Source: an uncultured Enterobacteriaceae bacterium
GTDB taxonomy: Bacteria > Pseudomonadota > Gammaproteobacteria > Eutrophobiales > Eutrophobiaceae
Assembly: GCA_964523895.1 (NCBI GenBank)
Contig: CAZGBJ010000002.1
Location: forward strand, 86,898-150,897
DNA: 64,000 nt
Direction: 5' to 3'
Part shown: positions 5,513 to 38,760 of the stretch, one piece after another
Position numbering within the stretch: position 1 is the stretch's first letter
Layout of the letters: the number at the start of each line of letters is the position of its first letter
Made by a program: the position numbers and the translations under genes
Notes under the pieces: generated by a model
Database searches by the model: none
What the model was told of the DNA's origin: nothing
Seen by the model: the letters and a program-made list of their open reading frames with translations, nothing else

Positions 5513-5567
5513 AATTTTAGCCGTACTTTATAAAAATAAAATTGAGCTTTAAAAGGAGAGTGTTGTA

Positions 5568-17613: not shown

Positions 17614-17631
17614 CAAAAACGAGTATCAAGC

Positions 17632-17964
17632 ATGAATATCAGCTCAGAAGAAAAAGAAAAATATACGCTTATTGGATTGGAAGGTGATGTTGATTTGTCA
17701 TGTTCGCCTGATGCTCGCAAAAGTATTCTCGCTGTACTGGAAGAAAATAAAAGTCTGTTAATTGATCTCGGGATGGTCACATATATCGATAGTTCCGGTA
17801 TTGCCAGTTTGGTCGAAGGTTATCAAACCGCTAAAAAACAATCATTGAGATTTGGTTTAGTGGGTGTCAGTGATGCTGCAATGAGCGTCCTGAAACTGGC
17901 AAGGCTTGATAAAGTTTTTCCTATATTTGATTCATTTGAAGACTATGAAAAAGAGGATATCTAA
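17632..17964 (+). CDS. STAS-domain anti-sigma-factor antagonist (RsbV/SpoIIAA-like)
   Basis: 110-aa STAS domain with the conserved phospho-Ser context (YIDSSGIASLVEG). Confidence 0.8.
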   Translation: MNISSEEKEKYTLIGLEGDVDLSCSPDARKSILAVLEENKSLLIDLGMVTYIDSSGIASLVEGYQTAKKQSLRFGLVGVSDAAMSVLKLARLDKVFPIFDSFEDYEKEDI

Positions 17965-21929: not shown

Positions 21930-24439
21930 TATTTATTTTTTTGTATAATTTTCAAGCAATTACGTAAATCTTTTACTAATTCCGCACCTGTTTGATAACG
22001 ATCTTCAGGTGTTTTTTCTAGCACCTTATTTATCATCGTACTTATCTCTGATGAAATTGGCATTAACTCTTTGCGTAAGGCTATTATTTCAGGATGTGGT
22101 TCATTTGCAATGCAAAACATTAATGAGGCCATTGAATCACCTTTAAATGGCAATTCTCCGGTTAATAATTGAAATAACATGACGCCAAGCGAGAATATAT
22201 CTGAGCGGCCATCAATATGTTTTCCCACGAGCTGTTCTGGTGACATATAAGAAGGTGTGCCTAACACCATCCCTGTTTTTGTTTTACTTGAATCTGTAAT
22301 TCGCGCTATACCAAAATCAGTTAGCTTAACCGTCGATTCTTTGGGAATTAACATAATATTGGCAGGTTTAATATCACGATGTACGACTTTTTGTTGGTGC
22401 GCATAACTTAATGCTTCGGCTGAAAGAATAACCAGTTGAATAACGGTTTTAATCGGAAGCAGTTTACCCTGTTTCGTATAACGCATGAGATCATGTCCAT
22501 CGAGAAATTCCATGGCGATGTAGGCCAGATCATGTTCATCACCGACATCAAAAATGGTGACAATATTAGGGTGGGTTAAGCGTCCGGCAGTTTCGGCTTC
22601 GCGAAAAAAACGTTCCTTGGCCTCATTTAGCTCATCTCCTTCAAATTCTTGTGACAAGGCCATTGTTTTTATTGCAACGACGCGATTGATTTTTGGATCC
22701 TTGCCCTGATAAACAATGCCCATCGCACCTTTACCTAATTCTTTTTCAATCTGAAAACGGCCTAGCATGGGTTTTTCTACAGAGCCATCTTCTAGAATAC
22801 TGACACCCGCTGTTCCACCGGAAGCACCAAACATAACGGTATCCTGCATAGCATTACTGCGTTTTATTCGATCAGCTACGTCCTTAAATTTAGCATCGTG
22901 TTTAGTCATGTATTCATAGATAGAAGATGCTTTATTAAATTGACGTTTGCGTTCGAAGTCGAGTGCCAGGTTATAAAGTGGTTCCATAATAGAGTCGTCG
23001 AGTGGACATTGGCGAAACTTATCCAACGCCATATCCAATTGCCCTTGTTGCTGGTAAGACAAGCCCAATGTTCGATTACTATCAGCCGATGCTTGATCTG
23101 ATTGAATCTTGCCTTTTTCTGTTACCAGGTAACGTTTGGATATCAGCAGTATGTAGCCGGCAATAAGTAATGTCGTCGGTAACATAAACTGTAACCAGAG
23201 ACCGGAATACAACAAAAACTGACTACTACCGATTAACAAAACAAAACAAACAAAACTGATCGTTGCAGCTAAGTTTGCAGATAGGCGTGGTAGTAATAAC
23301 ATCAGGTAGAGTGCAATCAGGATAAAAACAGAAATTTCAACTGGCCAGGCCCAGCCGGGTATTTCAATAAAGTCCTGATTCAAAATACTGGCAACAATAT
23401 TTGCTAAAACTAATACCGGTGGCATAGCTTCAGCAATCGGTGTAACAACCGAAGTGCCAACACCAAAAGCACTTGCGCCGATTAATACAATCTTGTCTTT
23501 GTAAATGCTTGCATCTATAACGCCGGAATAAACATCGTAAAATGAATCCATAGAAAAAGAAGAGTTACCTTGTGCATCCTGATAGAAGAAAGGATAAATG
23601 CGACCAATATCATCTAAAGTGATCGAAAGGTTACCGAGATTAAATTGTTTGTTTTCTGAAATTTTTAGATCCTGACTGCTAAGGTTCAGACTAGCGGCAG
23701 CAATCATTGCCGCAAGTGAAGGTATAATTTGTCCGTAGTGATCGACGGCCAACAGATCTGAACGAATACCGCCATCATTATCCAGCCACATATTCAGATG
23801 GCCTATGGCATGTGTTGTTTCGCCAAGAATATTGATTGGTGGTGTAGCACTGATGGTTGGATAAATATAGACACCACTGTCTATGTCTGCATTAAATCCC
23901 ATAGCATTACGAGAAACATATTCAGGCAAAGGTTCATCGGGTTTGCCAAGTGGCGTCCCTAGTTGAAACTGCATACCCATAACTACGTTGCCAGCGTGTT
24001 GCATGGCGTTGGCAAGCTTGCCGTCTGAATCCAGTTCGGATTGGCCTTGTTTCAATATATTTATAGCCTCACTCAATTCGGGATCAGATTTAGACTCAAG
24101 ATTATTAATTGCGTCGTTAAAGTATTTATCACCCAGATGGGTCTGAGGTTCTGATAAAAGAATACTGTTACCAATGACACTTACGCCACCTTGCGCGAGC
24201 TTTTCAATCATCTCTGCTTGAAGAGAACGTGGCCAGGGCCAACGTCCCAGGTTCTCTATGCTTTTATCATCAATAGCAATGACGGCGATATTTTGTTGTG
24301 ACTCACGAGCAAGCAGGTTCATTGCAAAGTCATAATTTGCAAATTCCAGTTTTTCAATGAATTGACTGTTGGCAAGGAATAAGAAAACAAGGGTTATAAA
24401 TAACCCTGCAAACCAGTCTTTTTTCCAGAAAGTTCCCAT
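21929..24439 (-). CDS. CHASE2-domain transmembrane Ser/Thr protein kinase with TPR-like linker
   Basis: N-terminal CHASE2 (LGRWPWPRSLQA), multiple TM helices, and a C-terminal Hanks kinase (LGKGAMGIVYQG…AIK; HRDIKPANIML; DFGIA). Confidence 0.85.
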   Translation of the reverse strand: MGTFWKKDWFAGLFITLVFLFLANSQFIEKLEFANYDFAMNLLARESQQNIAVIAIDDKSIENLGRWPWPRSLQAEMIEKLAQGGVSVIGNSILLSEPQTHLGDKYFNDAINNLESKSDPELSEAINILKQGQSELDSDGKLANAMQHAGNVVMGMQFQLGTPLGKPDEPLPEYVSRNAMGFNADIDSGVYIYPTISATPPINILGETTHAIGHLNMWLDNDGGIRSDLLAVDHYGQIIPSLAAMIAAASLNLSSQDLKISENKQFNLGNLSITLDDIGRIYPFFYQDAQGNSSFSMDSFYDVYSGVIDASIYKDKIVLIGASAFGVGTSVVTPIAEAMPPVLVLANIVASILNQDFIEIPGWAWPVEISVFILIALYLMLLLPRLSANLAATISFVCFVLLIGSSQFLLYSGLWLQFMLPTTLLIAGYILLISKRYLVTEKGKIQSDQASADSNRTLGLSYQQQGQLDMALDKFRQCPLDDSIMEPLYNLALDFERKRQFNKASSIYEYMTKHDAKFKDVADRIKRSNAMQDTVMFGASGGTAGVSILEDGSVEKPMLGRFQIEKELGKGAMGIVYQGKDPKINRVVAIKTMALSQEFEGDELNEAKERFFREAETAGRLTHPNIVTIFDVGDEHDLAYIAMEFLDGHDLMRYTKQGKLLPIKTVIQLVILSAEALSYAHQQKVVHRDIKPANIMLIPKESTVKLTDFGIARITDSSKTKTGMVLGTPSYMSPEQLVGKHIDGRSDIFSLGVMLFQLLTGELPFKGDSMASLMFCIANEPHPEIIALRKELMPISSEISTMINKVLEKTPEDRYQTGAELVKDLRNCLKIIQKNK

Positions 24440-24535: not shown

Positions 24536-26431
24536 CTATATTTTGGTCTCCAAATCATTTTTCTTTTCAAAACCAGAGAGAATAATTTCAACCTGTGTTC
24601 CATGCTCATCACTAGAAATATCCAGTTTTGCATTAATGCCTTCCGCACGTTTTTTCATATTTTTAAGTCCACGGCTTGTTCGGTCACTTTGATCGCACCA
24701 ACTTCCATCATCACGAATATGTATTAAAATTTCATGAATACCATCTTCATGATTATTTGATTTAGTTGCAACATAAAGATTTTTTGCACGACTATGTTTT
24801 AATACGTTTGATATAGCTTCTTGCAAAATTCGCATTAAATGGAGTGCTTTACGTGGGCCAAAATCTTCCAATATAGGTAAAGGTTTTACTTGCCAGTGAA
24901 GTTTTATACCATGTCCATCTAATCTTGGTTGTAAGCGAGAACGTAACATACCAAGCAGCGTTGGTAGATCTTCGCTCGCTGTATCTAATGAATCAATTAC
25001 AAGTCGTAAATCTGTTAAGCTCTGTGCTAACGCATCGCGCATATCTGATTGTGAAATACGGCCAGTATCAATCTCAGCTAACATTGCCACAAGTTGACCA
25101 CCAACACCATCATGCACATCCTGCATAATTCTATCGCGTTCTTCAGACAGTAGTTTTTCCTGTTCCATTTTTTTTAAGCGTTCATAGTTTTCCGTTAGTT
25201 CAATTTCCTTATTTTTAATTCTTTGTTCAAGTTGAAGGTTTAGTGATTCAGATTCTCTAAGTACATTTATGAATCTTGACAATAAAAACCAGATTAAAAC
25301 TAACATTGTGGGTAGACCACTGTATTGGATTAATAGACCTCGGGTTCGATCAATAAGTCCTGAAATAACTAAAAAATCATTTAAGCCAAACGTAAAAATG
25401 ATGGTTCCTGCAATTAGTAATAATTTAATTTCAATTATCGGTTTTTTACCATGTGCATATAAAAGGAAAAGCATCGTATAAGTTCCAATTGGTAATAATG
25501 AAAGATCCCATACCAAATAAGCATATTTATGAACCCATTCTTGTGAAAAGATAAATAAAGGTAATGCACCTAATAATCCATAAATCATTAAAGCTTTTTC
25601 TCGCTTTGGATAAACTTTACCAACATAACGATGGTTAAAAATAATTAACGCAATAACCATCCATCCTAACAAAGTAAAATATAAACCGTCCCACAGTGTT
25701 ACTGATATTCCATGCGGTGGATCGATAAAATGAGGAATGTTATGTAAGGTCCAAAAGAAGGTGCAAGCGGTAAACCACCCATACATTGAATCTTGTCTAC
25801 GTAATATCCAGAGTACTCCCATGAATAAACTTAAAAACAGCATGCCAAAAGTAATAATAGCAACAAGGGTAAAGCGATAATGATAGCGCCACTCCCAGGC
25901 AGATTTCATAGCTTGTGTCGGACCAAAATAAATATCACCGAGTAAACCATTTGCAGATGGCGAGCTGTGTAAATATATTTCTATCAGATGCTCGCCAGAG
26001 TTGAGACTACTTTCAGGTAGACTGACAAATAATGGTCTACTCCAGATACGACCACTTACAACATGTTCTGGATAATTGCTTTTGACAGGAGTTTGATCAA
26101 CCCAGACATCAGCAATCTGTTGAACATGCGTAATAAACAGTGCTAATGGTTGATCAATTGATTCTTCTATCGTTACTGGAATTTGATACCAACCAGATTC
26201 AATAGCAGTATCAACTCCTCGCCAATCATGAGGTAGTTGAATTAATTTTTTATTATTTGTTGGCTGATCGTTATCAGTAATGAAATAAACATTATCAAGT
26301 TTAAAGGATGAATCAGGATCAGGTAGCCAGGATGGTGAGAAAAAGACGATTAGTAAAAAAAACACACCAAAAACGAATATCCATCTTGGTGTATTTCTAA
26401 TAACAGAATATGTTTCTCTTAATACCTTCAT
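24536..26431 (-). CDS. 7TMR-DISM sensor histidine kinase (HisKA_3/NarX-type)
   Basis: Periplasmic 7TMR-DISMED2-like region, 7 TM helices, a coiled coil, then HisKA_3 (DVHDGVGGQL) and HATPase_c. Confidence 0.8.
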   Translation of the reverse strand: MKVLRETYSVIRNTPRWIFVFGVFFLLIVFFSPSWLPDPDSSFKLDNVYFITDNDQPTNNKKLIQLPHDWRGVDTAIESGWYQIPVTIEESIDQPLALFITHVQQIADVWVDQTPVKSNYPEHVVSGRIWSRPLFVSLPESSLNSGEHLIEIYLHSSPSANGLLGDIYFGPTQAMKSAWEWRYHYRFTLVAIITFGMLFLSLFMGVLWILRRQDSMYGWFTACTFFWTLHNIPHFIDPPHGISVTLWDGLYFTLLGWMVIALIIFNHRYVGKVYPKREKALMIYGLLGALPLFIFSQEWVHKYAYLVWDLSLLPIGTYTMLFLLYAHGKKPIIEIKLLLIAGTIIFTFGLNDFLVISGLIDRTRGLLIQYSGLPTMLVLIWFLLSRFINVLRESESLNLQLEQRIKNKEIELTENYERLKKMEQEKLLSEERDRIMQDVHDGVGGQLVAMLAEIDTGRISQSDMRDALAQSLTDLRLVIDSLDTASEDLPTLLGMLRSRLQPRLDGHGIKLHWQVKPLPILEDFGPRKALHLMRILQEAISNVLKHSRAKNLYVATKSNNHEDGIHEILIHIRDDGSWCDQSDRTSRGLKNMKKRAEGINAKLDISSDEHGTQVEIILSGFEKKNDLETKI

Positions 26432-26599: not shown

Positions 26600-27307
26600 T
26601 TATGTGTCGGATTTGATAATACCTTGCTGCACTCCCTTCATAACAGCTTCAGCTCGTGTCTTGACTGCTAGCTTGCGATAAATATTTCGAATATGCGTAT
26701 TGACTGTATGACGTGAGATTTCATTTTGATCAGCAATCTCCTGCGCATTATATCCATGACTGACAAAGTTTAGAATTTCCTGTTCTCGTTTAGTAATTTT
26801 TTCTGTCGCTTGGTCATCTGATTCTTCAACAATAGGTTCATCATTACTTCGAAACCGTTTTAATAAATGTTGTGCAATTGCAGGACTGATTGGTGCACCA
26901 CCATTCATTAATTGAAAGATGGCATTGGCAATTTGATCAGCGCCGCCATCTTTTAATAAATAGCCACCTGCACCTGCTTCAATAGCACGAATAACATGTC
27001 TTTCATCACCAAATACCGAAATTACCATCGCTTCAGTATTCATATCATTTGTTTTAATCTGGTGAATCAAGTCCACTCCATCACCATCAGGTAAATCCAA
27101 ATCAGTAAGTAAAATATCAGGTGATAATTTGTGTAAGAGAGCACATGCCGTTGCATAGTCACCGGCATCACCCAGTAATTCCAGTTGTGGATGGCCAGTG
27201 ATAACTCGAGAAAAACGTTCACGTGTGGACGAATCATCCTCAACAATTAGGACAGTGGCTATTTTTTCCATTATTTCCGGTTGTTCTTTTATGGTGGATA
27301 GATTCAT
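26600..27307 (-). CDS. NarL/FixJ-family response regulator (REC + LuxR HTH)
   Basis: TVLIVEDD REC domain and a C-terminal LuxR-type HTH (LTKREQEILNFVSHGYNAQEIAD). The true start may be the internal ATG at 27271. Confidence 0.85.
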   Translation of the reverse strand: MNLSTIKEQPEIMEKIATVLIVEDDSSTRERFSRVITGHPQLELLGDAGDYATACALLHKLSPDILLTDLDLPDGDGVDLIHQIKTNDMNTEAMVISVFGDERHVIRAIEAGAGGYLLKDGGADQIANAIFQLMNGGAPISPAIAQHLLKRFRSNDEPIVEESDDQATEKITKREQEILNFVSHGYNAQEIADQNEISRHTVNTHIRNIYRKLAVKTRAEAVMKGVQQGIIKSDT

Positions 27308-27579
27308 ATGGAAAACTATCCTGCCATTTAAATTAGCCTACGAATATACCTAATTCTCAGTATATGAAACAGTAAATCTACCTAATACTGGTGATTGGAA
27401 TTAATACTTAAGCCCCACAAAATAGACACATTACTGCGAAATAAAGTTACGGGGTTGGGGGTCCTTTTGTTAACAGCGTTATATAGGGCTAAAATTCGTA
27501 TGCTTATGATATTTAACATGTTATTGTTTTTCTCAATAATAAAAGTCAAATCATTGGCGACAAAAACAACGGTAAAACA

Positions 27580-29148
27580 ATGGCTTGCATCAGGCTCAGT
27601 AGATTCATGTGTTGCGCAATCACACTATATGGTTTTATTGCCATGAGTCCTCTATTGTCTGCTGAAGAGATTCCCACGGTCAGTTTTTCTGTGACCGAAT
27701 TTTCTATTTTAGGTGAAAACCCTATTTCAGAGGAAGAAACTAATCAAACCTTATCTTCCTTCCTAGGCGAGCATCAAGGTCTTGACGGGTTATTAGAAGC
27801 GGCAGCTGAACTTGAAGCTGCGATTTTGAATGCCGGTTATTCATTTAATCGCGTCGTTCTACCACCGCAGACTTTACAAGCTGGAGTTGTTCAATTGAAA
27901 ATCACGCAAATTAAATTGGCCAATATTGAAATAGAAGGAAATCATTTTTTTTCAAATGAAAATATTATTCATTCAATCCCCGGTTTAGTTCCGGATACGG
28001 TTCCCGATACCAGACAACTGGCAAGGCAATTAATCGTTGCAAATAATCATCCATCTAAAAGCGTCACGATCAGAATGAAACAAAGTAAAAAACCAGAAAG
28101 TGTCGATGCTGTGCTGAATGTACAAGATCAACGACCCTGGCAAATATTTAGTGTTTTAAACAACATCGGCACATCGAAGACAGGTCGTTTAAGGTTTTCT
28201 GCAGGAGGACAACATAACAATCTATTAGGTTTCGATGACAGCCTTACTGCAAGCTATACCACCTCACCTGGCAATACCTCTGATGTAAAACAATGGGGTT
28301 TAAATTATCGGATACCCGTTTATAAATATTCCGGAGAGTTTAACTTCTTTTATTCTCGTTCAGATGTGGATAGCGGAACAGTACAAAGTGTTTTTGATGT
28401 GAGTGGTGCAGGTAAATTTCTTGGTGGTAGTTATACGCATACATTTCTCAATCGAAAAAATTATCGTCATCGGATGAGTGTCGGCGTTGATGATAAATTT
28501 TTTCAAAACAATGTGGCATTTCTAGGAGCACCAATCGGTATTGATGTTAGAAGCCGTCCATTGATGCTTTCTTATTTTGGTGAATACCAGATGGAAAAGT
28601 CACAAATCCGATTCAATATCAGCCATGTTCGTAATTTAAATGGCGGTAATTTAAATAGTAGTACAACTTATGCTGCTTCTCGAGCAGGTGCTCAACAAGA
28701 TTGGGATGTTGTTCGTTACAATGCTACCTATAACAGAGCATTATCTAAAAATTGGTTATTAAAATTTTCCTGGAATGGACAATGGAGTAATGAGCCTTTA
28801 ATCAGTGGTGAACAATTTGGTATTGGTGGTGTAAATTCAGTACGAGGTTTTGAAGAGCGTGCTGTTACTGGTGATAGAGGCGATCAGGCAACAGTCGAAT
28901 TTTCAAGACCAATCTTAAATAACAATACACAAGTAAGACTATTCACAGATATAGGCCATATTAAAGTTATATCACCTGCAGCGGGTCAAGTTGCCAGTCA
29001 AACATTAGCCAGTATTGGCGCTGGAATAAGCTGGCGCTGGAAAGACAAGCTGAGTTTCTCGCTAGATTATGCACATGAATTAAATGATGGCCGCACAATA
29101 GATATTGGTGGCACAAAAACACATGCCAGTATTTTCTTTCGGTTTTAA
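27580..29148 (+). CDS. Two-partner secretion outer-membrane transporter (TpsB; ShlB/FhaC/HecB family)
   Basis: POTRA and beta-barrel pattern with a C-terminal ...FFRF aromatic terminus and a signal peptide. The start codon is uncertain. Confidence 0.85.
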   Translation: MACIRLSRFMCCAITLYGFIAMSPLLSAEEIPTVSFSVTEFSILGENPISEEETNQTLSSFLGEHQGLDGLLEAAAELEAAILNAGYSFNRVVLPPQTLQAGVVQLKITQIKLANIEIEGNHFFSNENIIHSIPGLVPDTVPDTRQLARQLIVANNHPSKSVTIRMKQSKKPESVDAVLNVQDQRPWQIFSVLNNIGTSKTGRLRFSAGGQHNNLLGFDDSLTASYTTSPGNTSDVKQWGLNYRIPVYKYSGEFNFFYSRSDVDSGTVQSVFDVSGAGKFLGGSYTHTFLNRKNYRHRMSVGVDDKFFQNNVAFLGAPIGIDVRSRPLMLSYFGEYQMEKSQIRFNISHVRNLNGGNLNSSTTYAASRAGAQQDWDVVRYNATYNRALSKNWLLKFSWNGQWSNEPLISGEQFGIGGVNSVRGFEERAVTGDRGDQATVEFSRPILNNNTQVRLFTDIGHIKVISPAAGQVASQTLASIGAGISWRWKDKLSFSLDYAHELNDGRTIDIGGTKTHASIFFRF

Positions 29149-29153
29149 ATAAA

Positions 29154-30521
29154 ATGAATCAGCAAACACACACATCATTTTTTTTACATTTAGCATTTTT
29201 GTTTGTGTGTTTACCAACAATAGTTAAAGCGAATGTAAATCAGGAAGAAATTGGCGAAGTTGTTTTTGCAAGAGGCGCAGTATCTGCTCAATCTCAAATT
29301 GGTGAAGTTCGTGTACTAGGAAAAGAAGCACCTATTTTTCAAGGTGATGTGATAACAACGGGACCAAAAAGTTTTAGTGTCATAAAAATGATGGATGATA
29401 GCCGAATATCAGTTAGACCCGACACGGTGTTTTCATTTGAAAATTATTCGATGAAAGAAAATGATGAAAGTGCAGTAATGCAATTATTCAAAGGTGGCTT
29501 AAGAGCAATCTCCGGGCTAATTAGTCAACGTAATCCAGAAGCCTTTAAATTGAATACCGCTGTAGCAACCATTGGCATACGCGGAACAGATTTCGATGCA
29601 AGACTATGTGAAATCGATTGTGCAATTGATGATAAAAAATATAAAAAGAAAGACGCGACTGTTGCAAAAGTCGTATTCCTAAGAGGCAATGTAAGTGCCG
29701 TCAATATAAACAATGAACAACGAGAGCTTGAATTAAATTCATCTGTTTATGAAGGCGAAACATTAATAACAGGTAAAAAATCTTATGCTGTCATCGCGTT
29801 TAACGATGAAAGTAAAATGACTTTAAAAGCGGAAACAGAATTAAAAATAGAAAGACACCGTTATATCTCGCCCGAATCGGATAAGAATGATGCCGTTTAT
29901 AAATTAATCAAAGGTGGTATGCGCGCCTTAACTGGTTTGATAGGTAAAAACAATAAAGAGGCCTATAAAGTTAAAACAGCAACAGCAACGATCGGTATTC
30001 GTGGAACTGGCTATGACTTGATCTGGTTAGGTGCATGTACCGGTGGCGCCAGCAGTTGTGGTCTAACGGGTTCAGTCTGGTTAGGAGCTATCTATGCAAA
30101 GAATGATGCTGGTGAATTCGAATTATTGGAAAATCAATCATTCATAATTCGATTAACTGATACACCCGCTACAATTATAAATACACCACCGGTGTTTGAT
30201 AGTCCGCGACCAGATAAAGTGGATGTTAACTTTGACGAACTGTTTGGAGACGAAGCCGAAGATGTTCCATCAGGATTGTACGCCAATACCCGTGAAGGCA
30301 TTGTTTATATGGAACGCGATGGCGAGATTATTGAGATGCGACCGGGCGAAGGCGGCTTTGTCTCAACTGATGGCAGTATCATTGTTAAATTGGAACGACC
30401 ACGAAACTTCCAAACGAATGATCCGTATTTACAAACGATCAATGAAGAGTTTGAAACGCTTTATGAGTTACTCGATGACAGTGTTATCGAACAAAATGAA
30501 TTTGAGTGCATTGTGCAATGA
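29154..30521 (+). CDS. Double FecR-domain protein, secreted
   Basis: Signal peptide plus two FecR-like domains (VVFARGAVSAQ…; VVFLRGNVSAV…). Confidence 0.7.
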   Translation: MNQQTHTSFFLHLAFLFVCLPTIVKANVNQEEIGEVVFARGAVSAQSQIGEVRVLGKEAPIFQGDVITTGPKSFSVIKMMDDSRISVRPDTVFSFENYSMKENDESAVMQLFKGGLRAISGLISQRNPEAFKLNTAVATIGIRGTDFDARLCEIDCAIDDKKYKKKDATVAKVVFLRGNVSAVNINNEQRELELNSSVYEGETLITGKKSYAVIAFNDESKMTLKAETELKIERHRYISPESDKNDAVYKLIKGGMRALTGLIGKNNKEAYKVKTATATIGIRGTGYDLIWLGACTGGASSCGLTGSVWLGAIYAKNDAGEFELLENQSFIIRLTDTPATIINTPPVFDSPRPDKVDVNFDELFGDEAEDVPSGLYANTREGIVYMERDGEIIEMRPGEGGFVSTDGSIIVKLERPRNFQTNDPYLQTINEEFETLYELLDDSVIEQNEFECIVQ

Positions 30522-30536
30522 TAAAATATATTTTCG

Positions 30537-30800
30537 CTAACCAGACGTATGTAATTCTTCACGAATTATTTTGCGTAATGTTTTTTCAAGAGGTTGTTTA
30601 TTTTGCGAAATAGATTCTCTAAGCGCATCATTAATCAAGGTCTGGTAGTTACCACCACCGGCTTTATGAACTATTTTTTTAAAGTGATCAATGATGTCTG
30701 AATCTAATCGAATAGTTATGCGTACTTTATTCGGATCTGGTTTAACTACAGGTCCGCGTTTACCTTTACTGAAATCATCTTTCATAGTCTGTTTTTTCAT
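30537..30800 (-). CDS. brnA: BrnA antitoxin (RHH/CopG-like)
   Basis: …RITIRLDSDIIDHFKKIVHKAGGGNYQTLINDALRE is a BrnA signature. It sits downstream of brnT with a short overlap. Confidence 0.75.
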   Translation of the reverse strand: MKKQTMKDDFSKGKRGPVVKPDPNKVRITIRLDSDIIDHFKKIVHKAGGGNYQTLINDALRESISQNKQPLEKTLRKIIREELHTSG

Positions 30801-31059
30801 AATATTGTTTCGTTTCATGTTTTGTTGCTTTTCGTGCCGATATAATACGAATACAAGAATCATCAAGTTCTGCATGGATAACCAAAAGAAGTTTCAATTT
30901 TGCTCCTATACCAAGAGTTTTGAATCTCTGTTCAGCATGGTTAGGGTCTTCTATCGTCAAAGCCATGTCATCTTCCAAAGCAAATACAGCATCCGCAAAA
31001 TCAACACCATGCTTGCGAAGATTTTGGACTGCCTTGTCCTTGTCCCATTCATATTCCAT
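30775..31059 (-). CDS. brnT: BrnT toxin (DUF497 ribonuclease)
   Basis: MEYEWDKDKAVQNLRKHGVDFADA … IRIISARKATKHETKQY is a BrnT signature. Confidence 0.8.
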   Translation of the reverse strand: MEYEWDKDKAVQNLRKHGVDFADAVFALEDDMALTIEDPNHAEQRFKTLGIGAKLKLLLVIHAELDDSCIRIISARKATKHETKQYYEKTDYER

Positions 31060-31109
31060 ATACATCCAAGTATATGCACAAACTGTGCACAAATAAAGGT
31101 ACGGAAGAT

Positions 31110-34100
31110 ATGAAACGGATAAATAAAGCTATTTTCTGTGGATTAATTTTAGGTTTAGCTTGTGGTCAAACTGCTTATGCGAATCCGACAGGTGCAACTT
31201 ATGATCCAAGTCAGGTCAGTATGGCTACACCTACTCCAAATACATTAGAGATTACTAATACCAATGGTGCGATTATTAATTGGCAACAGTTTTCTATTCA
31301 ACAAAATGAAATTACTCGCTTCATTCAGTCAGGTGCGAATAGCGCTGTATTAAATCGTGTGACTGGTGGCAACCCCTCCTCTATTCTCGGGCAACTACTT
31401 TCTAATGGCCGTGTCTTTTTGATCAATCCGAATGGCATCGTCTTTGGTCCGAACTCAGTGATTGATACTGCAGGATTGATTGCCTCAACCCTGGACATGA
31501 CCGATGAAGATTTTATCAATCAAAATCTTAAGTTTCAGGGAGACAATGCAGCCGATATAAGTAACAAGGGTTATATAAAAGCCGGTGCTAATGGTGATGT
31601 CTTTTTAATTGCGCCGAATATAGAAAACAGCGGCATCATCGAAACTAACGGTGGTGAAATTATTTTAGCGGCAGGTGAGAGCGTCACCATTGCCAGTTTG
31701 GATTCTGATCACATTGTATTTGATGTACAAGCACCGGAAAACGAAGTGGTTAATCTCGGTGAGATGATCACAAATGGTGGTGCAGCCAAGATGTTTGCCG
31801 GCACCATTAAACACAATGGTTCCATTAATGCGAACAGTATCAGTGTTGATGCAAACGGCAACGTACAACTTTTTGCTAAGGCCGACATTGAAATCACCAA
31901 CGACGCAACGATTACTGCAAATGGGTCAAGCGGTGGCGAAATAAAAATAAAAAGCGACACGGGTACCGTTTGGAGCGCAGGTACGATTGAAGCCAAAGCC
32001 GAGGGTAAAGGAGGTAGTGTCCAATTACTCGGTGAGCGAGTTGCCTTACTAGATGATGCCAGTATTGATGTATCCGGTGAAACTGGTGGTGGTGAAGTAT
32101 TAATTGGTGGTGATTATCAAGGCAAAAATGACGAAGTTAAAAATGCCAAGCAAACCTATGTTGGTGAAGATACAACAATAACAGCGGATGCGATTACAAG
32201 TGGTGATGGTGGTAAAGTTATCGTTTGGGCAGATGAAACTGCACAAATACACGGCGATATCTCAGCCAAAGGTGGAAGTGAATCAGGTAATGGCGGTTTT
32301 GTTGAAACCTCAGCAAAAGAAAATCTTCAGATAACTAAAACACCTGATGTAACTGCACCAAATGGTCAGGGTGGTGAATGGCTTATCGATCCGAATAATA
32401 TTGATATTGTGGCAGGTGGTGGTAACACAAATATCAATGCCGTTGATCCTTTTGTATCAACAGCGGATGGTGCACAACTTGGTGTTGATCTCATTGAGGC
32501 AGCATTGAGTGGTGGTGTCAGTGTCAGTGTCACCACCGCTGCAGGTGGTGCTGAGCTTGGTAATATAAACCTGAATACTATATTAGAACTGGATGATACG
32601 GGTGGTCCAGCAACCAACACACTAACCCTGAGTGCCCACAACGATATTAATATTAATAGTGCCATTGTTGATACCACACCAGGTGGGCAAACACTTAATC
32701 TCACATTAATCGCAGATAGCGATTCATCAATTGGTGGTGTTATTAATATCAACGCTGATATCGATACTAATGGTGGATTGATTGATGCACAAAGCGCGGG
32801 TGCGGGTGTAATTTCGTTTAATGCGGCCTCATCCACAATTAATAGTAATCTTAATGCAACAACATTAAACATAGACGGTACAGACAACGTCAGTTTTAAT
32901 GGCACCACCAGTACCAATACACTTTCTCTCACGGGCAGCGGGACATTAAATGGCACGGGTAACGTGATAGTAACGGGAGATGGAACATCGGCAACGGATT
33001 TCACATGGAGCGGTTCCAGTACGGTATCGGGTGTTGCATCCAGTGGCGTTTTTCTCACTACGGGGTCTAGTGTTGATACCAACACAACCACGGGAGTGAC
33101 AACCAGTCTGGATACCAGCACTAATAATTTGATTCTTGACGGAAGCAGCTGGACCAATAATGGCACTCTCACATGGTCCCTGATCTCTGGCGACAGTAGT
33201 TGGCGCGTGATCAATGCTTCGACGGTTAACAACGCTGGGGTTTTCAATATCACTACGGGTTCAGGTGCGAATGTCAGTCAAACCGGGGGAACGGTGGGAA
33301 CAATTAACAACTCGGGTATCCTTAATTACAGTTCCAGCGGATCCACCACCGACCGATTGGATATTCATAGCAATTTTAACAATACGGGAACGTTAAATGT
33401 GAATGCGGGTTTTTTACAGATTGGTTCATCCGACTCTTCAGCTAGCGGAATCAGTTCTGGAAGCTTTGTTGTGGCCAGCGGAGCTATATTGGAGTTCCAG
33501 AACGATGTGCAAACAATATCTGGAACCTTCAGTGGAACAGGTTCCGTACGAATAGCATCTGGCACCCTAAACCTTAATGCAGATAACACCATCGCTGATT
33601 TGACCATGAGTGGAGGAACGTTACAGGGAACCGGGGATGTAACGGTAACAACCGCGATGTCGTGGAGTGGTGGGACGTTTGGCGGCACGGGAACGCTGAC
33701 CACGAACTCTGGCGTTACAACAACGATGGACGGAACTGCCGCTACCACTTTGGATCGTGACTGGACGAACAACGGCACGATCGATTGGACGACTACTTCG
33801 AGTCAAGATTTTACCATCAACAACACGTTGACCAATACCTCTACCGGCAACTTCAATTTGCAGAATACGGCTTCTGCCGCAGACATTGTCGGGAGCGGAA
33901 CTATAGATAATGCCGGTACGGTGACGGTGAATTTTACGGGTGGCGCCGATACTGATATTTTTCCGACCTTCAACAACACAGGCACGGTGACGGTCACTCA
34001 GGGCAATCTGGGAATCTTTGGAACAGGAACGGACACGGGAAGCTATACCGTAGCCAGCGGCGAAATCCTGACGTTTTCAAATTTCGTGACACGTGACCTG

Positions 34101-36866
34101 CAGGCGGGTTCGAGCATCACCGGCGCAGGGACGGTGTCCCTTGGCACGGGCACCCGCACCTTTGCCGGTACCTATAATATAACGGGGGTAACAAATCTCA
34201 ATAATGGCTCGAATAACTTTAATACGACAGCTTCAACAAATACGTTGATTCACACTGCTGGTATTTTAGGTGGCAGCGGCAGTTTAACGGTTAACAACAC
34301 CTGGACACCGACATCGGGTGTGACGATAGATGGTAATCTGATAACGCCGAATACACCAGTCAGCTTTGGTACATTTACTATTAAAGGATCAGGTGCAATT
34401 ACTTTGGGTGGTTCATTAACATTGAATAGTGGCACAACTGATATTGATCCAACATTGAATGTCACTGGTTTAACCACGATGAATAGCGGATCAACTTTAG
34501 ACGGTACCAACACCTTATTTGCGAATGGTGGATTCAATGTTGCTGGATTTGGCGGTACATTAACCTGGGTTATCAATCGAGCTGTACAAATAGCTGGAGG
34601 CACCTGGAATCCAAGTGCTGCAGGCAACCCAGCAACTAAACTGTTATCCGGTACAGGGTCAATTACTAATACGGGGACCTTAAATGCAACGGCAGGTTCC
34701 GGTTTTTCAACGTTTAATAATCGTTTACGCGTAGCAGTACCGTTTACAAATAACGGTATTGTTAATAAAAACACCAGTACTGATCGCGTTGACTTTGAGA
34801 ATACATTTAATAATAACGGTACTATCAATACTAATGATTCTGCAAAAGAACTTCTATTGAGTGGTGGTGGTACGCATACTGGTACATTTAGTGGTAGTGG
34901 TTTTCTCGATCTCGCTGGCGGTCATACCTTTAATACAGGTACAGTTTTTAATGGTTCGGGCAATGTTGAATTCTCTGGTGGTACCAATACGTTTAATGCG
35001 GGTACTTACAATATTACTGGTCAGACTCTTCTAACCGGCGGTACAACAACATTCGATGCTTCATTGAATTCGTCCTCATTATCTATTGGAAGTGGTACAT
35101 TGGATGGCACAGGTAACTTCAACATATCAGGATCAACCATATTAAATAATGCTGGGACTATTGGCGGCACAGGTATCTTGTTTGCGAATGGTGGGTTTAA
35201 TGTTTCTGGTTTTGGTGGTGGTTTAACCTGGTTCGTCAATCGCGATGTGCAAATGGCGGGGGGTAGTTGGAATCCTTCACATTCCGGTAACCCGGCAACG
35301 AAGCTCTTGTCTGGTTCCGGGTCAATCACGAATACGGGTACCTTGAATGTAACAGCGGGGTCGGGATTTTCAACCTTTAATAACCGTTTACGCGTTGCAG
35401 TAGCGTTTACCAATAATGGTATTGTGAACAAAAATACCAGTAATGATCAGGTTGATTTTGAAAGTACATTTAACAATAACGGTACGGTTAATGCCAATGA
35501 TGCTGCCAAGCCATTGCGCCTTACAGGTGGCGGCACACATACTGGCACGTTCAACAATACTGCAGCGCTCGTATTTGATGGTGGCATACATAATCTTGAT
35601 GACGGTGCGTTACTAACGGGTGGCGGAACCTATTTTTATACGGCTGGAAATTTAAATGCGATTGGTACGGGTGCTGGAGCAACACTTGATACCGGAGCGA
35701 CGTTAACTGTTAACGGTGGTCGTACCTTGGGTGGTGCCGGGAAACTTTCAAATAACGGTACACTTGTTTTTAATAGCGGTAGTCTGAGTGCCGATTTAAT
35801 TAATAACAATATGGTTCAATTTACTGGCGGTACTAATAATATCAATTCAGGTTCTGATGTCAGTGGAGGAGGTGATATCGCATTTACCGGTGGGACGACT
35901 ACTTTTGCTGCAGGTTCAACTTACACCATCAGTGGCGATACTGGTATCAATGGTGGTGATGCGGTTTTTAATATTAATGCTATTACTAATTCCTTAACTC
36001 ATGCAGCCGGGTCGTTTGGAGGTGGTAGTAGTGGCGATATCACAACATCAACCTGGATGCCAACCAGTGGTGTCACACTGAATGATATTGACCTGATACT
36101 TGCTGCAAATGGCACAAACACACTTACGGGTATTACTGTTAACTCTGCGGGTACGGCTACGGTCACTAATCAGGGTTCGTTAACCGTAAACGGTAGTACC
36201 ATTGCTTCGAACTTTACTAATACCGGTACATTTAATGTTAGCGGATCTTTAAATAATCTATCAGGTACCGCGACACAGTCTGCTGGTAGTTTTATATTAG
36301 GTGCGGGGTCAGATATCACAACTGCAAACTTGAACGTGGTTGGTGGAACATTAACAGGTACAGGTACACTTAATGGTAGTGTTAATAACTCGGGCGGCAC
36401 ACTCGCTGCGGGTAGTTCGCCAGGTACGTTAATTATTGGTGGTAATTATATTCAAGGTGCCGGTGGAACCTTCCTTGCTGAACTCGCTGGTACAGCTGTC
36501 GCTGGAACGGATTACGATTTATTATCTGTCGGCGGCACAGCTTCATTAGCAGGAACCTTAGATATTCAGTTGTTTGGTGGATTTAACGGTAATGTCGGCG
36601 ATCAATTCGACATCATTCAATCTACAGGCGCAGTAAGTGGTGACTTTACGACTGTGACTGTGCCTACTACACATACGTTTACCAATACACCACTTGCTAA
36701 TTCTTATCAGATTGAGATAGCAACAGTTTCATCTGGCACTACAACTGTTAATGCTACGGATGATATTGTTGTACTGGATGATTTTCAGGATCAACTGACG
36801 GTGATCTTTGTTGATCCAGATTCAAATGAAGAAGACGAAGAGAAAAAAGATCTCGCGTGTCGATAG
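31110..36866 (+). CDS. Large TPS-domain exoprotein (TpsA; filamentous-haemagglutinin-like beta-helical adhesin/exoprotein)
   Basis: Signal peptide, TPS domain with LINPNGIVFGPNSVIDTAGLIAST, then about 1700 aa of G/T/S/N-rich beta-helix repeats. It is the cognate TpsB cargo. Confidence 0.85.
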   Translation: MKRINKAIFCGLILGLACGQTAYANPTGATYDPSQVSMATPTPNTLEITNTNGAIINWQQFSIQQNEITRFIQSGANSAVLNRVTGGNPSSILGQLLSNGRVFLINPNGIVFGPNSVIDTAGLIASTLDMTDEDFINQNLKFQGDNAADISNKGYIKAGANGDVFLIAPNIENSGIIETNGGEIILAAGESVTIASLDSDHIVFDVQAPENEVVNLGEMITNGGAAKMFAGTIKHNGSINANSISVDANGNVQLFAKADIEITNDATITANGSSGGEIKIKSDTGTVWSAGTIEAKAEGKGGSVQLLGERVALLDDASIDVSGETGGGEVLIGGDYQGKNDEVKNAKQTYVGEDTTITADAITSGDGGKVIVWADETAQIHGDISAKGGSESGNGGFVETSAKENLQITKTPDVTAPNGQGGEWLIDPNNIDIVAGGGNTNINAVDPFVSTADGAQLGVDLIEAALSGGVSVSVTTAAGGAELGNINLNTILELDDTGGPATNTLTLSAHNDININSAIVDTTPGGQTLNLTLIADSDSSIGGVININADIDTNGGLIDAQSAGAGVISFNAASSTINSNLNATTLNIDGTDNVSFNGTTSTNTLSLTGSGTLNGTGNVIVTGDGTSATDFTWSGSSTVSGVASSGVFLTTGSSVDTNTTTGVTTSLDTSTNNLILDGSSWTNNGTLTWSLISGDSSWRVINASTVNNAGVFNITTGSGANVSQTGGTVGTINNSGILNYSSSGSTTDRLDIHSNFNNTGTLNVNAGFLQIGSSDSSASGISSGSFVVASGAILEFQNDVQTISGTFSGTGSVRIASGTLNLNADNTIADLTMSGGTLQGTGDVTVTTAMSWSGGTFGGTGTLTTNSGVTTTMDGTAATTLDRDWTNNGTIDWTTTSSQDFTINNTLTNTSTGNFNLQNTASAADIVGSGTIDNAGTVTVNFTGGADTDIFPTFNNTGTVTVTQGNLGIFGTGTDTGSYTVASGEILTFSNFVTRDLQAGSSITGAGTVSLGTGTRTFAGTYNITGVTNLNNGSNNFNTTASTNTLIHTAGILGGSGSLTVNNTWTPTSGVTIDGNLITPNTPVSFGTFTIKGSGAITLGGSLTLNSGTTDIDPTLNVTGLTTMNSGSTLDGTNTLFANGGFNVAGFGGTLTWVINRAVQIAGGTWNPSAAGNPATKLLSGTGSITNTGTLNATAGSGFSTFNNRLRVAVPFTNNGIVNKNTSTDRVDFENTFNNNGTINTNDSAKELLLSGGGTHTGTFSGSGFLDLAGGHTFNTGTVFNGSGNVEFSGGTNTFNAGTYNITGQTLLTGGTTTFDASLNSSSLSIGSGTLDGTGNFNISGSTILNNAGTIGGTGILFANGGFNVSGFGGGLTWFVNRDVQMAGGSWNPSHSGNPATKLLSGSGSITNTGTLNVTAGSGFSTFNNRLRVAVAFTNNGIVNKNTSNDQVDFESTFNNNGTVNANDAAKPLRLTGGGTHTGTFNNTAALVFDGGIHNLDDGALLTGGGTYFYTAGNLNAIGTGAGATLDTGATLTVNGGRTLGGAGKLSNNGTLVFNSGSLSADLINNNMVQFTGGTNNINSGSDVSGGGDIAFTGGTTTFAAGSTYTISGDTGINGGDAVFNINAITNSLTHAAGSFGGGSSGDITTSTWMPTSGVTLNDIDLILAANGTNTLTGITVNSAGTATVTNQGSLTVNGSTIASNFTNTGTFNVSGSLNNLSGTATQSAGSFILGAGSDITTANLNVVGGTLTGTGTLNGSVNNSGGTLAAGSSPGTLIIGGNYIQGAGGTFLAELAGTAVAGTDYDLLSVGGTASLAGTLDIQLFGGFNGNVGDQFDIIQSTGAVSGDFTTVTVPTTHTFTNTPLANSYQIEIATVSSGTTTVNATDDIVVLDDFQDQLTVIFVDPDSNEEDEEKKDLACR
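34500..35555 (+). repeat. Internal tandem duplication within tpsA: two copies of about 390 nt, 665 nt apart
   Basis: Copy 1 is 34500-34890 and copy 2 is 35165-35555. They encode about 90% identical 125-aa segments (FANGGFNV.GFGG.LTW.VNR.VQ.AGG.WNPS..GNPATKLLSG.GSITNTGTLN.TAGSGFSTFNNRLRVAV.FTNNGIVNKNTS), but the DNA has diverged mostly at synonymous positions. Confidence 0.7.
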
Positions 36867-36869
36867 TTA

Positions 36870-37310
36870 TTAACAATTTTCTTTTATGTATTTTTCGCGT
36901 TTATCTTCTTCGGCTTTGCGTTCTTTATCGGTATAAATTTTAGGGTTATTAGGATCGTCCGTTTCCTCGAATAAATGAGTAGAGTCTTTCATTTTTTTTA
37001 ATTTCTTTTTCATGTCAGAGCACTCTTTTTCTTGTTTCTCTTTTTTCTCCTTCTCTTCATTTTGTGACGTAATTTTTTCGTCTCGTTCTTCCTGTATTAC
37101 ATTAAGTAATTTTTGCTGTCTTTCATAGCGCTCCTGATAATACTTATCTTGCTTAGGTGGGTTTTTAATTTTTATTTTATCGGCATCGTTCGTTGTCGGC
37201 TTATCGCCATAGATTACCTTTCCATTTTCGTCGATCCATTTATAAACTTCAGAATAGGCAGTACTTACTTGGAGAAGCAGTAAGGTAATAAATAATAGTG
37301 TTTTATACAT
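36870..37310 (-). CDS. DUF4124-domain secreted protein with a Lys/Glu-rich tail
   Basis: Signal peptide followed by EVYKWIDENGKVIYGDKP, the DUF4124 signature. Confidence 0.7.
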   Translation of the reverse strand: MYKTLLFITLLLLQVSTAYSEVYKWIDENGKVIYGDKPTTNDADKIKIKNPPKQDKYYQERYERQQKLLNVIQEERDEKITSQNEEKEKKEKQEKECSDMKKKLKKMKDSTHLFEETDDPNNPKIYTDKERKAEEDKREKYIKENC

Positions 37311-37338: not shown

Positions 37339-38760
37339 TCAGGCTACTTTTTTTACGATATCCTTTTTTGTTAGAGTAGACTCTATCGCTGTCTTGAGTT
37401 CGGTGCAAACTAATTTAAATGATTGTAGTTCGCTAGTTGCTAATTTCTTGTTAGATTCTCCATGGTCGACGTAAAAACACCCGGTTACTCTATTGTTTAT
37501 GTAAAATGAATTTACAATGATAGTTGCTGATGATTTCATTGGTCGTAATGCACTGGGAAGCATTTCTATGAATTTATGCTGGTTTTTTGAATTAATACAG
37601 AGTGTTTGTTCTTTTTTTAATAATTGACGAAAAAGTTTATTTAATTCAATCGAGATCTTTAATTGTTTAAGATTTGGAAGATTATTATCCAGTGATTGAA
37701 ATTTTACATTCAGGCATTTTTCATTTGTATCAAACGACATAAAGAGTACACGCGAGAATCCTATACCTTCTTTCATGGCTTTTATCGAAATTTCTATAAG
37801 TTCGCGTGCTGATTTAGCTGGATTATTCGAACGGAGTAATTTCATGCAATCTGGAAAAATTGTATTTTCGGGCGCTTCAATTTCTTTCGGCTCCTTTTTA
37901 ATGGATGACGGATAGCTCATCATCATCAGTAATAGAGGTTGATAAGGCAGATACTGTTGACTATGTCGAATGGTATTAATAATAACCCGATTTATTTCTC
38001 CCGCTGTCTGGTTTGCCGGAATACGAATATATTCTGCGATACGGTCGATCAACTCTTCAGGGTAGTGAATTGATGAATGAGTAACTATTTGATGCATCAG
38101 TTCTGTTGTAAGTAGTATCCCGGTTATTTTGGGATTATGGTGTTTGCCGGAATAGCTTTCACAAATTAATTCAGGTAGTTTCCAGTTTTTAGCCAGGGAC
38201 TCTGATATTTCATCCAGACTGTTACCAAGCAATTCTTTTTCCTTACTTATATAATTTTCACTCTCTGAAAAATATAATTCTTCCACTTGTCTGGCCTTTT
38301 CAGAATCAACCAGATACAACATGAAGCTTAAAAAGCTATGATTTAAACCTGCGGTAAAGAGTTCATTGTTTTCAGATTCCTTTCTCAAAATAGACCACTG
38401 TTTCGCCATGCAGGCAATTTGATGTTGATAAGCATAGATGTGCAGTATTTTTGTTACGATTTTCTTATCCAGCACTTTTTCTAACTGTGGTAAGTCCGTC
38501 AGCATCTTAGTCACAATGGGTATACTTATGAGAGAGATCGCATGAGAGAGAGTGGTGATTTCTTTTTTACTGGCACGGCCGGCATGGCGTAATAGTGACA
38601 TCGAAAAACCCGGGTCTTGCATAGCAATATCAGTCAAGACATTAAACGTAATGTCTTGTTCGTTTTCTTGTAGTTCATAAAGTCTGTGTTTGCTCTGATA
38701 CAAAACAGGTATTTCGCAATCGCTGAAGGCTTTTATCCAATGTGACAATGTATTAGCCAT
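37339..38760 (-). CDS. HDOD-domain signalling protein
   Basis: 473 aa with an N-terminal HDOD-like region. No catalytic GGDEF, EAL or HD-GYP motifs were seen. Confidence 0.65.
   Translation of the reverse strand: MANTLSHWIKAFSDCEIPVLYQSKHRLYELQENEQDITFNVLTDIAMQDPGFSMSLLRHAGRASKKEITTLSHAISLISIPIVTKMLTDLPQLEKVLDKKIVTKILHIYAYQHQIACMAKQWSILRKESENNELFTAGLNHSFLSFMLYLVDSEKARQVEELYFSESENYISKEKELLGNSLDEISESLAKNWKLPELICESYSGKHHNPKITGILLTTELMHQIVTHSSIHYPEELIDRIAEYIRIPANQTAGEINRVIINTIRHSQQYLPYQPLLLMMMSYPSSIKKEPKEIEAPENTIFPDCMKLLRSNNPAKSARELIEISIKAMKEGIGFSRVLFMSFDTNEKCLNVKFQSLDNNLPNLKQLKISIELNKLFRQLLKKEQTLCINSKNQHKFIEMLPSALRPMKSSATIIVNSFYINNRVTGCFYVDHGESNKKLATSELQSFKLVCTELKTAIESTLTKKDIVKKVA

Follow-up and report, generated by a model that had tools for sequence, protein, structure and literature searches.

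What keeps a two-partner-secreted exoprotein at the cell surface when it carries only a single cysteine at its end, and why does a toxin-antitoxin cassette sit directly in front of its gene? These questions are raised by a locus in the 64,000-nucleotide window analysed here (contig CAZGBJ010000002.1 of assembly GCA_964523895.1, positions 86,898 to 150,897), from an uncultured Enterobacteriaceae bacterium, in which the genes of a two-partner secretion (TPS, type Vb) system, encoding the transporter TpsB and the exoprotein TpsA, are accompanied by a gene for a secreted protein with two FecR modules and by a BrnT/BrnA toxin-antitoxin (TA) pair on the opposite strand. We propose that this is a three-partner TPS locus, in which the double-FecR protein may tether the TpsA tail in trans, a histidine kinase/response regulator (HK/RR) pair is a good candidate for the regulator, and brnTA is an accessory cassette; to this explanation as a whole we assign a probability of about 0.5. 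The window is chromosomal, with sucA, gltA, mdh and mutS present, and its nearest labelled relatives are uncultured Gammaproteobacteria/Thiotrichaceae metagenome-assembled genomes. The open reading frame (ORF) map and the domain scans place the five genes in the order and on the strands given in a preliminary description of this DNA, and the domains of TpsB together with the TPS domain of TpsA bear out its assignment to two-partner secretion:

27580-29148, forward strand: tpsB, Omp85/TpsB outer-membrane transporter, 522 aa (Pfam POTRA_2 4e-13, ShlB 2.9e-31, Omp85 6.5e-06)
29154-30521, forward strand: fecR, secreted double-FecR protein, 455 aa (PF04773 1.2e-20, two matched stretches)
30537-30800, reverse strand: brnA, antitoxin, 87 aa (PF14384, BrnA_antitoxin, 2e-12)
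30775-31059, reverse strand: brnT, toxin, 94 aa (PF04365, BrnT_toxin, 3.1e-25, profile positions 1-77 of 77)
30537-31099, reverse strand: brnTA cassette as delimited by DNA conservation across lineages, reaching from the stop codon of brnA to CAAATAAAGG shortly before tpsA
31075-31089: inverted repeat TGCACAAACTGTGCA between the brnT and tpsA starts, flanked on the brnT strand by a -35-like TTATTT and a -10-like TATACT
31110-36866, forward strand: tpsA, exoprotein, 1918 aa, Gly/Thr/Asn-rich (TPS domain 9.5e-29, TIGR01901 4.9e-24, both from the N-terminal 400 aa)

The TPS system, the BrnTA pair and the two-component regulator are ordinary components. As in the type Vb systems FhaB/FhaC and EtpA/EtpB, the genes are clustered and TpsB combines ShlB-type POTRA and Omp85 barrel regions, with the L6 motif VRGF in its translation ('NSVRGFEE') conforming to (V/I)RG(Y/F). 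TpsA likewise displays a Sec signal peptide, a TPS domain with the motif LINPNGIVFG (containing NPNGI), a long repeat region, presumably beta-helical, and a charged tail, and is predicted to be exported by its cognate TpsB. The locus differs from these systems in its conserved third gene, which encodes the double-FecR protein, and in the lone penultimate cysteine of TpsA: the tail ends in ...EEDEEKKDLACR, with Cys1917 at position -2 (codon 36858-36860) as the sole mature cysteine. TpsB has cysteines at positions 3, 11 and 12 only, all within the signal peptide, leaving the mature transporter cysteine-free.

That the third gene belongs to the system is evident from its relatives. With the FecR protein as query, 2,534 homologues were retrieved at E<=1e-5, from which we assembled 85 loci, 82 of them distinct (five metagenomic loci, for the two closest FecR homologues, and 80 from species-representative genomes; designated by L numbers below), and mapped the window proteins onto these with phmmer. 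Of the 82 distinct loci, 73 have a TpsB gene and 57 a TPS-domain gene on the same strand as fecR, with both present in 54; many of the loci without both partners are truncated contigs. The order of the genes varies, i.e. tpsB-fecR-tpsA in 29 loci, tpsA-fecR-tpsB in 13 and tpsA-tpsB-fecR in 9, and such shuffling is expected of functional linkage rather than of mere inheritance. The gap between fecR and tpsA is usually below 250 nt in the relatives, and only 9 nt in L001. Hence the Sec-exported double-FecR protein is a regular member of this kind of type Vb locus, a family-wide third partner and not an accessory that TPS loci sometimes carry, as it had been described at the outset. The literature searched contains no report joining FecR or CHASE2 with TPS systems, and it does not describe a large TPS subclass whose third partner is of the FecR type.

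The architecture of the third partner hints at its function. In the AlphaFold model (mean pLDDT 82.6) the two FecR modules that follow the signal peptide fold as beta-sandwiches (residues ~32-152 and ~169-291). Behind them come a third domain, likewise beta-rich, and an acidic tail that is disordered from residue 439 to 455 (pLDDT below 50) and bears the lone Cys452 (codon 30507-30509). Foldseek against the PDB retrieves the periplasmic domains of FecR-type anti-sigma regulators (4m0n, 4m0h and PupR, 6ovk_R), with which the protein has this fold in common, although in the window the module is duplicated, an extra C-terminal domain is added and the cytoplasmic anti-sigma domain is absent. A further structural match (E=1.6e-3, TMt 0.78, 31% identity over 62 columns) is 5ix9, the 'cell surface anchoring domain' of MpIBP, an ice-binding adhesin from Marinomonas; the FecR-family profile also matches 5ix9 by sequence alone among PDB sequences (E=4e-4). 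This domain is a periplasmic plug that halts complete secretion of MpIBP and LapA through the outer-membrane pore (bioRxiv 10.1101/198937). The FecR modules resemble this retention module, a small periplasmic beta-sandwich too large for the pore by which a giant adhesin is retained. However, in LapA and MpIBP the module is the adhesin's own N-terminus and the pore is TolC-like, whereas in the window it forms a protein of its own within a type V system; the setting of a type I-secreted RTX adhesin, whose N-terminal module goes together with a LapG site and a TolC-like pore, is thus not that of the FecR protein.

The distribution of cysteines connects the two exported proteins. C152, C156, C295 and C452 are invariant in an alignment of 18 FecR-family members, and every one of 120 FecR homologues examined has a cysteine within its last 2-6 residues, in 107 cases exactly at position -4. 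The number of mature cysteines is odd in 111 of these 120, and the others stand in close pairs (i,i+4; i,i+7), so that the terminal cysteine is expected to be the unpaired one. The partner exoproteins mirror this pattern: 29 of 31 complete TpsAs have a cysteine at -2 or -3, behind a charged stretch (...EEKRELACR in L001, ...RRRALMCS in L016, ...RRLKQCR in L077), their other cysteines forming mostly close pairs. The periplasmic CHASE2 domains, that of the kinase encoded next to this locus among them, have no cysteine. TPS loci lacking a FecR gene (n=7, on plasmids and megaplasmids) provide a comparison, in that none of their TpsAs (0/7) ends with a lone cysteine, and two, from Nitratireductor and Methylomagnum, carry paired cysteines within the last 30 residues, in a hook-like loop.

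Based on these observations, we propose the following mechanism. TpsA would thread through TpsB N-terminus first, its short and highly charged C-terminal tail staying in the periplasm. There, the lone penultimate cysteine of TpsA would form a disulfide with its lone counterpart in the flexible FecR tail. As the folded FecR protein (~45 kDa) would be too bulky to enter the pore, it would serve as a stopper pinning the filament to the cell, in effect a cysteine hook in trans, provided by a protein that resembles a retention module. More speculatively, the stopper may also link the filament to a neighbouring sensor, be it one of the two CHASE2 proteins (kinase or cyclase) or the histidine kinase. 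A trans tether would account for the linkage of the genes, the matched lone cysteines at fixed distances from the C-termini, the cysteine-free TpsB and the paired cysteines in some FecR-less TpsAs, and judging from the sequences we regard the disulfide between the TpsA tail and the periplasmic FecR protein as coming close to an even proposition. It resembles the arrangement of CdrA/CdrB in Pseudomonas aeruginosa, where a TPS adhesin is held by its C-terminus in the TpsB pore through cysteine chemistry. The CdrA hook, however, is an intramolecular disulfide between two cysteines of the adhesin itself and is released by LapG, whereas here one cysteine resides in TpsA and the other in a separate protein; with its single mature cysteine, the window TpsA does not possess a two-cysteine hook of the CdrA type. 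By eye, no canonical (T/P)AAG LapG motif is present in the TpsA tail, and no LapG or LapD genes turned up among the scanned window ORFs, neither having been the object of a dedicated search.

Several considerations speak against the tether. The case for the disulfide is built from conservation and cysteine parity; the tails of TpsA and of the FecR protein are both acidic, so that their pairing is not obviously favoured; and the lone cysteines could instead give homodimers or carry another modification. The periplasmic location of the TpsA C-terminus is, moreover, assumed by analogy with CdrA. Finally, the likeness to the retention module is a general property of the FecR fold, and the NCBIfam model retention_LapA (NF033682) scores 47.6 bits with the FecR protein, below its cutoff of 50.

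TpsA yields little to whole-protein searches. A Pfam scan of the full-length protein matched no family, and the TPS domain emerges only when the N-terminal 400 aa are scanned in isolation, illustrating how the defining domain of a long, low-complexity exoprotein can escape a scan of the whole protein. Three 500-aa pieces of TpsA, as well as C-terminal 260-aa pieces of three family members, were also without Pfam matches. We considered an autotransporter-like 'autochaperone' region at the C-terminus and dropped it, the sole lead being a 22-bit match to NCBIfam EprS, and the only PDB sequences matched by the C-terminus, designed 'Pizza' repeat proteins, represent a compositional artefact. Within tpsA, two 300-nt stretches (34467-34766 and 35130-35429) that lie 663 nt apart are 74% identical, an internal duplication corresponding to a repeated protein block of ~220 aa.

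The genes divergent from tpsB encode the candidate regulator:

24536-26431, reverse strand: sensor histidine kinase (HisKA_3 and HATPase_c)
26600-27307, reverse strand: NarL/LuxR-type response regulator (Pfam Response_reg 6.9e-21, GerE 6.5e-16)

The preliminary description had named a 7TMR-DISM histidine kinase and a LuxR-type response regulator as the candidate regulator. Kinase and regulator are indeed present, and the general topology fits, with one transmembrane segment, ~150 aa in the periplasm and then several transmembrane segments between residues 189 and 391 according to hydropathy; the Pfam 7TMR-DISM label is unsupported even at E<=10. NarL-like NCBIfam matches of the response regulator stay below cutoff. 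The pair is kept beside the TPS genes in L004/5, L007, L008 and L097-100, down to 49% FecR identity. Between the response regulator gene and tpsB, a block at 27320-27400 is conserved across these lineages, including GAATATACCTAA, invariant in five lineages (alignment A4), and the direct repeat TACCTAAT at 27347-27354 and 27379-27386, 32 bp apart. This block may be a NarL-type response-regulator site. Together, the conserved divergent synteny and the intergenic block argue for the proposed regulatory role, and the HK/RR pair appears to be the most constantly linked regulator in the clade of the window.

We next turn to the cassette between fecR and tpsA. Its proteins are ordinary members of the BrnT/BrnA type II TA systems, with full-length domains, the toxin gene first, overlapping brnT and brnA ORFs and a palindrome in the promoter region. 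An alternative brnA start at 30785 would give 82 aa, and gene calls of 82 and 87 aa occur in L094 and L097. The palindrome at 31075-31089 lies 20-35 nt upstream of the tpsA ATG and, as judged from the sequence, is a candidate BrnA operator; alignment A3 shows no variation in its right arm TGTGCA or in the TATACT box, while the palindrome as a whole is partly conserved. What is unusual relative to known BrnT/BrnA systems is the fixed genomic slot in one kind of TPS locus.

The first comparison suggested a private insertion, with BrnT/BrnA found in none of the 85 FecR-anchored loci (82 distinct). L001, L004/5, L006, L007 and L008, which are the nearest relatives and match the window in synteny apart from the cassette, are cassette-free and have only short, unalignable spacers at the fecR-tpsA junction (identity to the window: FecR 78% in L001; FecR 74% and TpsB 81% in L004/5). 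A search with BrnT as the query, however, overturned the idea that brnTA is unique to the window:

BrnT P0121, 100% identical to the window BrnT, in L094-96: other contigs of the window's own organism, same layout
BrnT P0126, 82%, in L097-99: same fecR-tpsA slot
BrnT P0124, 85%, in L100: same fecR-tpsA slot, with IS110 beside brnA
BrnT P0122, 81%, in L101/102: same fecR-tpsA slot
BrnT P0125, 80%, in L104: beside a 26-codon fecR 3' remnant and TPS-domain genes
BrnT homologues of 70% or less, in L103 and L106/107: unrelated contexts

All five contexts of BrnT homologues with at least 78% identity thus adjoin fecR or tpsA, four of them in the fecR-tpsA slot, and the FecR proteins of the carrier hosts are 49-77% identical to that of the window. 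The FecR search had yielded no identical entry (best 78%), yet contigs with identical genes in the same collection surfaced via BrnT; a missing 100% match in the FecR homology search is therefore no proof of absence. Scanning JGI metagenome contigs for the cassette promoter and the brnT start recovered only the contig already known.

Alignment A3 reveals the cassette as a sharply bounded conserved block of ~560 bp, extending from the brnA stop codon (30537) to CAAATAAAGG (31090-31099) and comprising both genes, the -35-like box, the palindrome and the -10-like TATACT. Both in the window and in L097/L100, precisely 10 nt separate its end from the tpsA start codon. Synonymous divergence (pS) between carriers is 0.46-0.51 for brnA/brnT and 0.72-0.87, i.e. 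saturated, for the flanking genes of the same genome pairs, compared with 0.61-0.76 between the window and its closest cassette-free relatives. From these values the cassette would be younger than its host loci or under unusual constraint. We conclude that brnTA is a recurrent, slot-specific cassette and not a one-off insertion. Most relatives lack the cassette, several lineages have it in the same slot, and it looks younger than the genes around it; we therefore take it either to enter this slot by horizontal spread or to be retained there by selection. The accessory nature anticipated in the preliminary description accordingly stands, the cassette being absent from the 82 loci, while a simple insertion proves too simple for a slot occupied in at least three other lineages (L101/102, L097-99 and L100). 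A TA cassette faithful to one intergenic slot is not described in the literature searched.

Two of the carrier loci display further rearrangements. In L100 an IS110-family transposase gene (4707-5534) separates brnA from fecR, and tpsB is broken into fragments; insertions seem to occur readily at the fecR-tpsA junction. In L104 the cassette abuts the last 26 fecR codons (1077-1154), followed by two TPS-domain fragments, which indicates a rearranged or decayed version of the locus.

Does the cassette serve the TPS system? It might be neutral to it, gate tpsA, or couple adhesin expression to BrnT activity. The strongest alternative to any functional recruitment is that brnTA is a purely selfish addiction cassette, persisting and spreading because its loss is difficult, whose position is a historical accident, propagated by recombination among related bacteria, and we give this reading a little short of an even chance. 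It agrees with the intact tpsB-fecR-tpsA operons of most relatives that lack the cassette, with the self-contained organization of the unit, which brings its own conserved promoter/operator, with the unrelated contexts of the more distant BrnT homologues and with the IS110 element beside the cassette in L100. The lower synonymous divergence relative to the flanks is, in addition, what horizontal spread predicts. An accident of history fits less well with the five closest contexts all lying beside fecR/tpsA, four of them in the slot, in hosts with such divergent FecR proteins, or with a junction to tpsA that is the same, 10 nt before the ATG, in L097/L100 as in the window; flanking homology is also too low for ordinary homologous recombination between the hosts. 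Spread into the slot in turn faces objections of its own. The low synonymous divergence of brnTA could mean constraint rather than transfer, a recombinase gene is found in one locus only (the IS110 of L100), and neither flanking direct or inverted repeats marking the ends of an insertion nor a slot-targeting mechanism is visible.

Functional integration, in turn, appears possible but rather unlikely. Here a BrnA-controlled divergent promoter region and the antisense orientation of the cassette would uncouple tpsA from tpsB-fecR, gating tpsA or linking the adhesin to BrnT-mediated growth arrest. The geometry is suggestive: where the relatives look like a single tpsB-fecR-tpsA operon, the window has 588 nt between fecR and tpsA filled by the antisense cassette, which replaces the short operon junction, reaches to within 10 nt of the tpsA ATG and places the palindrome immediately upstream of it. 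A stretch of 15 nt without a predicted terminator separates the stop codons of brnA and fecR, so that transcription of brnTA and tpsB-fecR is expected to be convergent, and the same slot has been occupied repeatedly. The sigma-70 and terminator scans yielded fewer sites than shuffled sequence. Against integration, no convincing tpsA promoter emerged from them, and most family members do without the cassette.

For the FecR protein, the alternative to a covalent tether is a non-covalent periplasmic partner, either a chaperone of unfolded TpsA or an adaptor from TpsB/TpsA to inner-membrane sensors such as the CHASE2 kinase, the CHASE2 cyclase or the histidine kinase, with the terminal cysteines serving homodimerization or stability. 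This possibility, which we consider doubtful, draws on the signalling genes next to the locus:

21929-24439, reverse strand: CHASE2 Ser/Thr protein kinase, 836 aa (Pfam CHASE2 3.7e-49, Pkinase 2e-56)
21102-21929, reverse strand: PP2C-type Ser/Thr phosphatase (Pfam PP2C_2 4.4e-11), kept in L004/5 and L007
20385-21077, reverse strand: FHA-domain protein (Pfam FHA 8.6e-21), kept in L004/5 and L007
18057-20318, forward strand: CHASE2 adenylate/guanylate cyclase, 753 aa (Pfam CHASE2 2.6e-54, Guanylate_cyc 4.7e-22), in the same place in L004/L005
17632-17964: STAS anti-anti-sigma protein
17185-17613: RsbW-like HATPase_c_2 kinase
15899-17200: GAF-SpoIIE phosphatase

The preliminary description had noted the HK/RR pair of this neighbourhood and overlooked the CHASE2 kinase, the PP2C phosphatase, the FHA protein and the CHASE2 cyclase. 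The last three entries constitute a partner-switching set (GAF-SpoIIE/RsbW-like/STAS, 15899-17964) directly upstream of the cyclase gene, and together with the genes downstream they form a signalling island of ~11 kb adjoining the TPS genes. The CHASE2 kinase adjoins the TPS genes also in L001, L004/5 and L007. With an iterated CHASE2 profile, the iteration of which added none, a CHASE2 gene was located within 10 kb in 14 loci, i.e. 11 of the 82 distinct ones, frequently as part of the same operon (in L067, L072 and L079 from Methylobacter and in L071) or divergent beside tpsB (L045, L049 and the window clade). In L067, L072 and L079, the CHASE2 cyclase, tpsA, fecR and tpsB are all encoded on one strand, followed in L067 and L079 by a PAS-SpoIIE phosphatase of ~770 aa, a different signalling output on the same three-gene core. 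As many loci are flanked by housekeeping genes instead (pepP, ubiH-like, an ion channel), CHASE2 is a frequent associate and not a core member.

Pairs of FecR and CHASE2 genes are found elsewhere. The Burkholderia 'BiofilmReg' operon pairs a FecR-domain gene with a CHASE2 gene and contains no TPS genes (PMC5192318), and a FecR-domain gene of S. meliloti, smc02177, has been described (PMC5498481). In S. meliloti, CHASE2 cyclases require the outer-membrane protein NsrA for signal perception. These systems share with the window a periplasmic FecR-domain protein encoded beside a CHASE2 receptor and, unlike it, are not described with TpsA/TpsB genes. Judging by its locus number, smc02177 presumably adjoins the CHASE2 cyclase gene cyaD1. 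Given such pairs and the dependence of CHASE2 cyclases on NsrA, a role of the FecR protein as an adaptor toward CHASE2 receptors is plausible but speculative by analogy. A non-covalent role is further in line with FecR-type domains being known periplasmic signalling modules, with the Foldseek matches to the PupR CCSSD and an anti-sigma FecR domain, and with the conservation of CHASE2, Ser/Thr kinase and HK genes as neighbours here. It leaves unexplained, however, why both proteins have one unpaired C-terminal cysteine when TpsB and the CHASE2 domains have none, and why the lone cysteine is missing from FecR-less TPS loci; most loci, moreover, have no sensor gene nearby.

Tether and signalling could also be combined. 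In such a trans-envelope sensor, TpsA would be tethered via TpsB to a FecR adaptor that informs the CHASE2 kinase, the cyclase and the histidine kinase whether the filament is bound, pulled, cleaved or released, and in some lineages brnTA would tie filament expression to toxin-mediated growth arrest. Coupling to sensors may hold, since FecR-type domains are periplasmic protein-protein signalling modules, but with CHASE2 near only 11 of the 82 loci it cannot be general, and we view the full device as improbable. Least of all, a classical cell-surface-signalling anti-sigma factor of the FecR/PupR type, acting on the locus via an extracytoplasmic function (ECF) sigma factor, is suggested by the Pfam FecR domain and the structural matches to the periplasmic domains of PupR and BDI_1681 but is effectively refuted by the architecture, as the signal peptide is followed immediately by the first FecR module (from about residue 32), leaving neither a cytoplasmic anti-sigma domain nor an internal transmembrane segment, and no ECF sigma or TonB-dependent transducer genes were detected among the scanned window ORFs or the related loci with gene calls.

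Beyond the locus, genes for a DUF4124 protein (36870-37310) and an HDOD-domain protein (37339-38760) follow directly downstream of tpsA on the opposite strand. Further along, a TadE-like pilus assembly protein (43814-44743) and further ORFs on the same strand at ~43.8-50.6 kb may represent a Tad pilus cluster, a second surface-attachment system of the window.

In conclusion, we here describe a TPS locus with a Sec-exported double-FecR protein as its third partner and with a TA cassette in the slot in front of tpsA. Surface retention of two-partner-secreted adhesins is understood in few cases, such as the CdrA hook and the HMW1 C-terminal loop. If the three-partner explanation with its trans tether is correct, these loci would constitute a large undescribed class, in which retention is delegated to a separate periplasmic protein via a single conserved cysteine pair. 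Neither the matched lone C-terminal cysteines of the FecR protein and TpsA nor the recurrent link of FecR-TPS loci to CHASE2 receptors is described in the literature searched. To our knowledge, no ligand class has been established for CHASE2, and ever since the definition of the domain it has been asked what its receptors sense; the sensing device, if real, would give CHASE2 its input, a FecR-type adaptor between an outer-membrane pore and CHASE2 being a concrete candidate. The slot-faithful cassette, in turn, represents a test case for whether chromosomal TA modules are merely selfish or recruited as local regulators.

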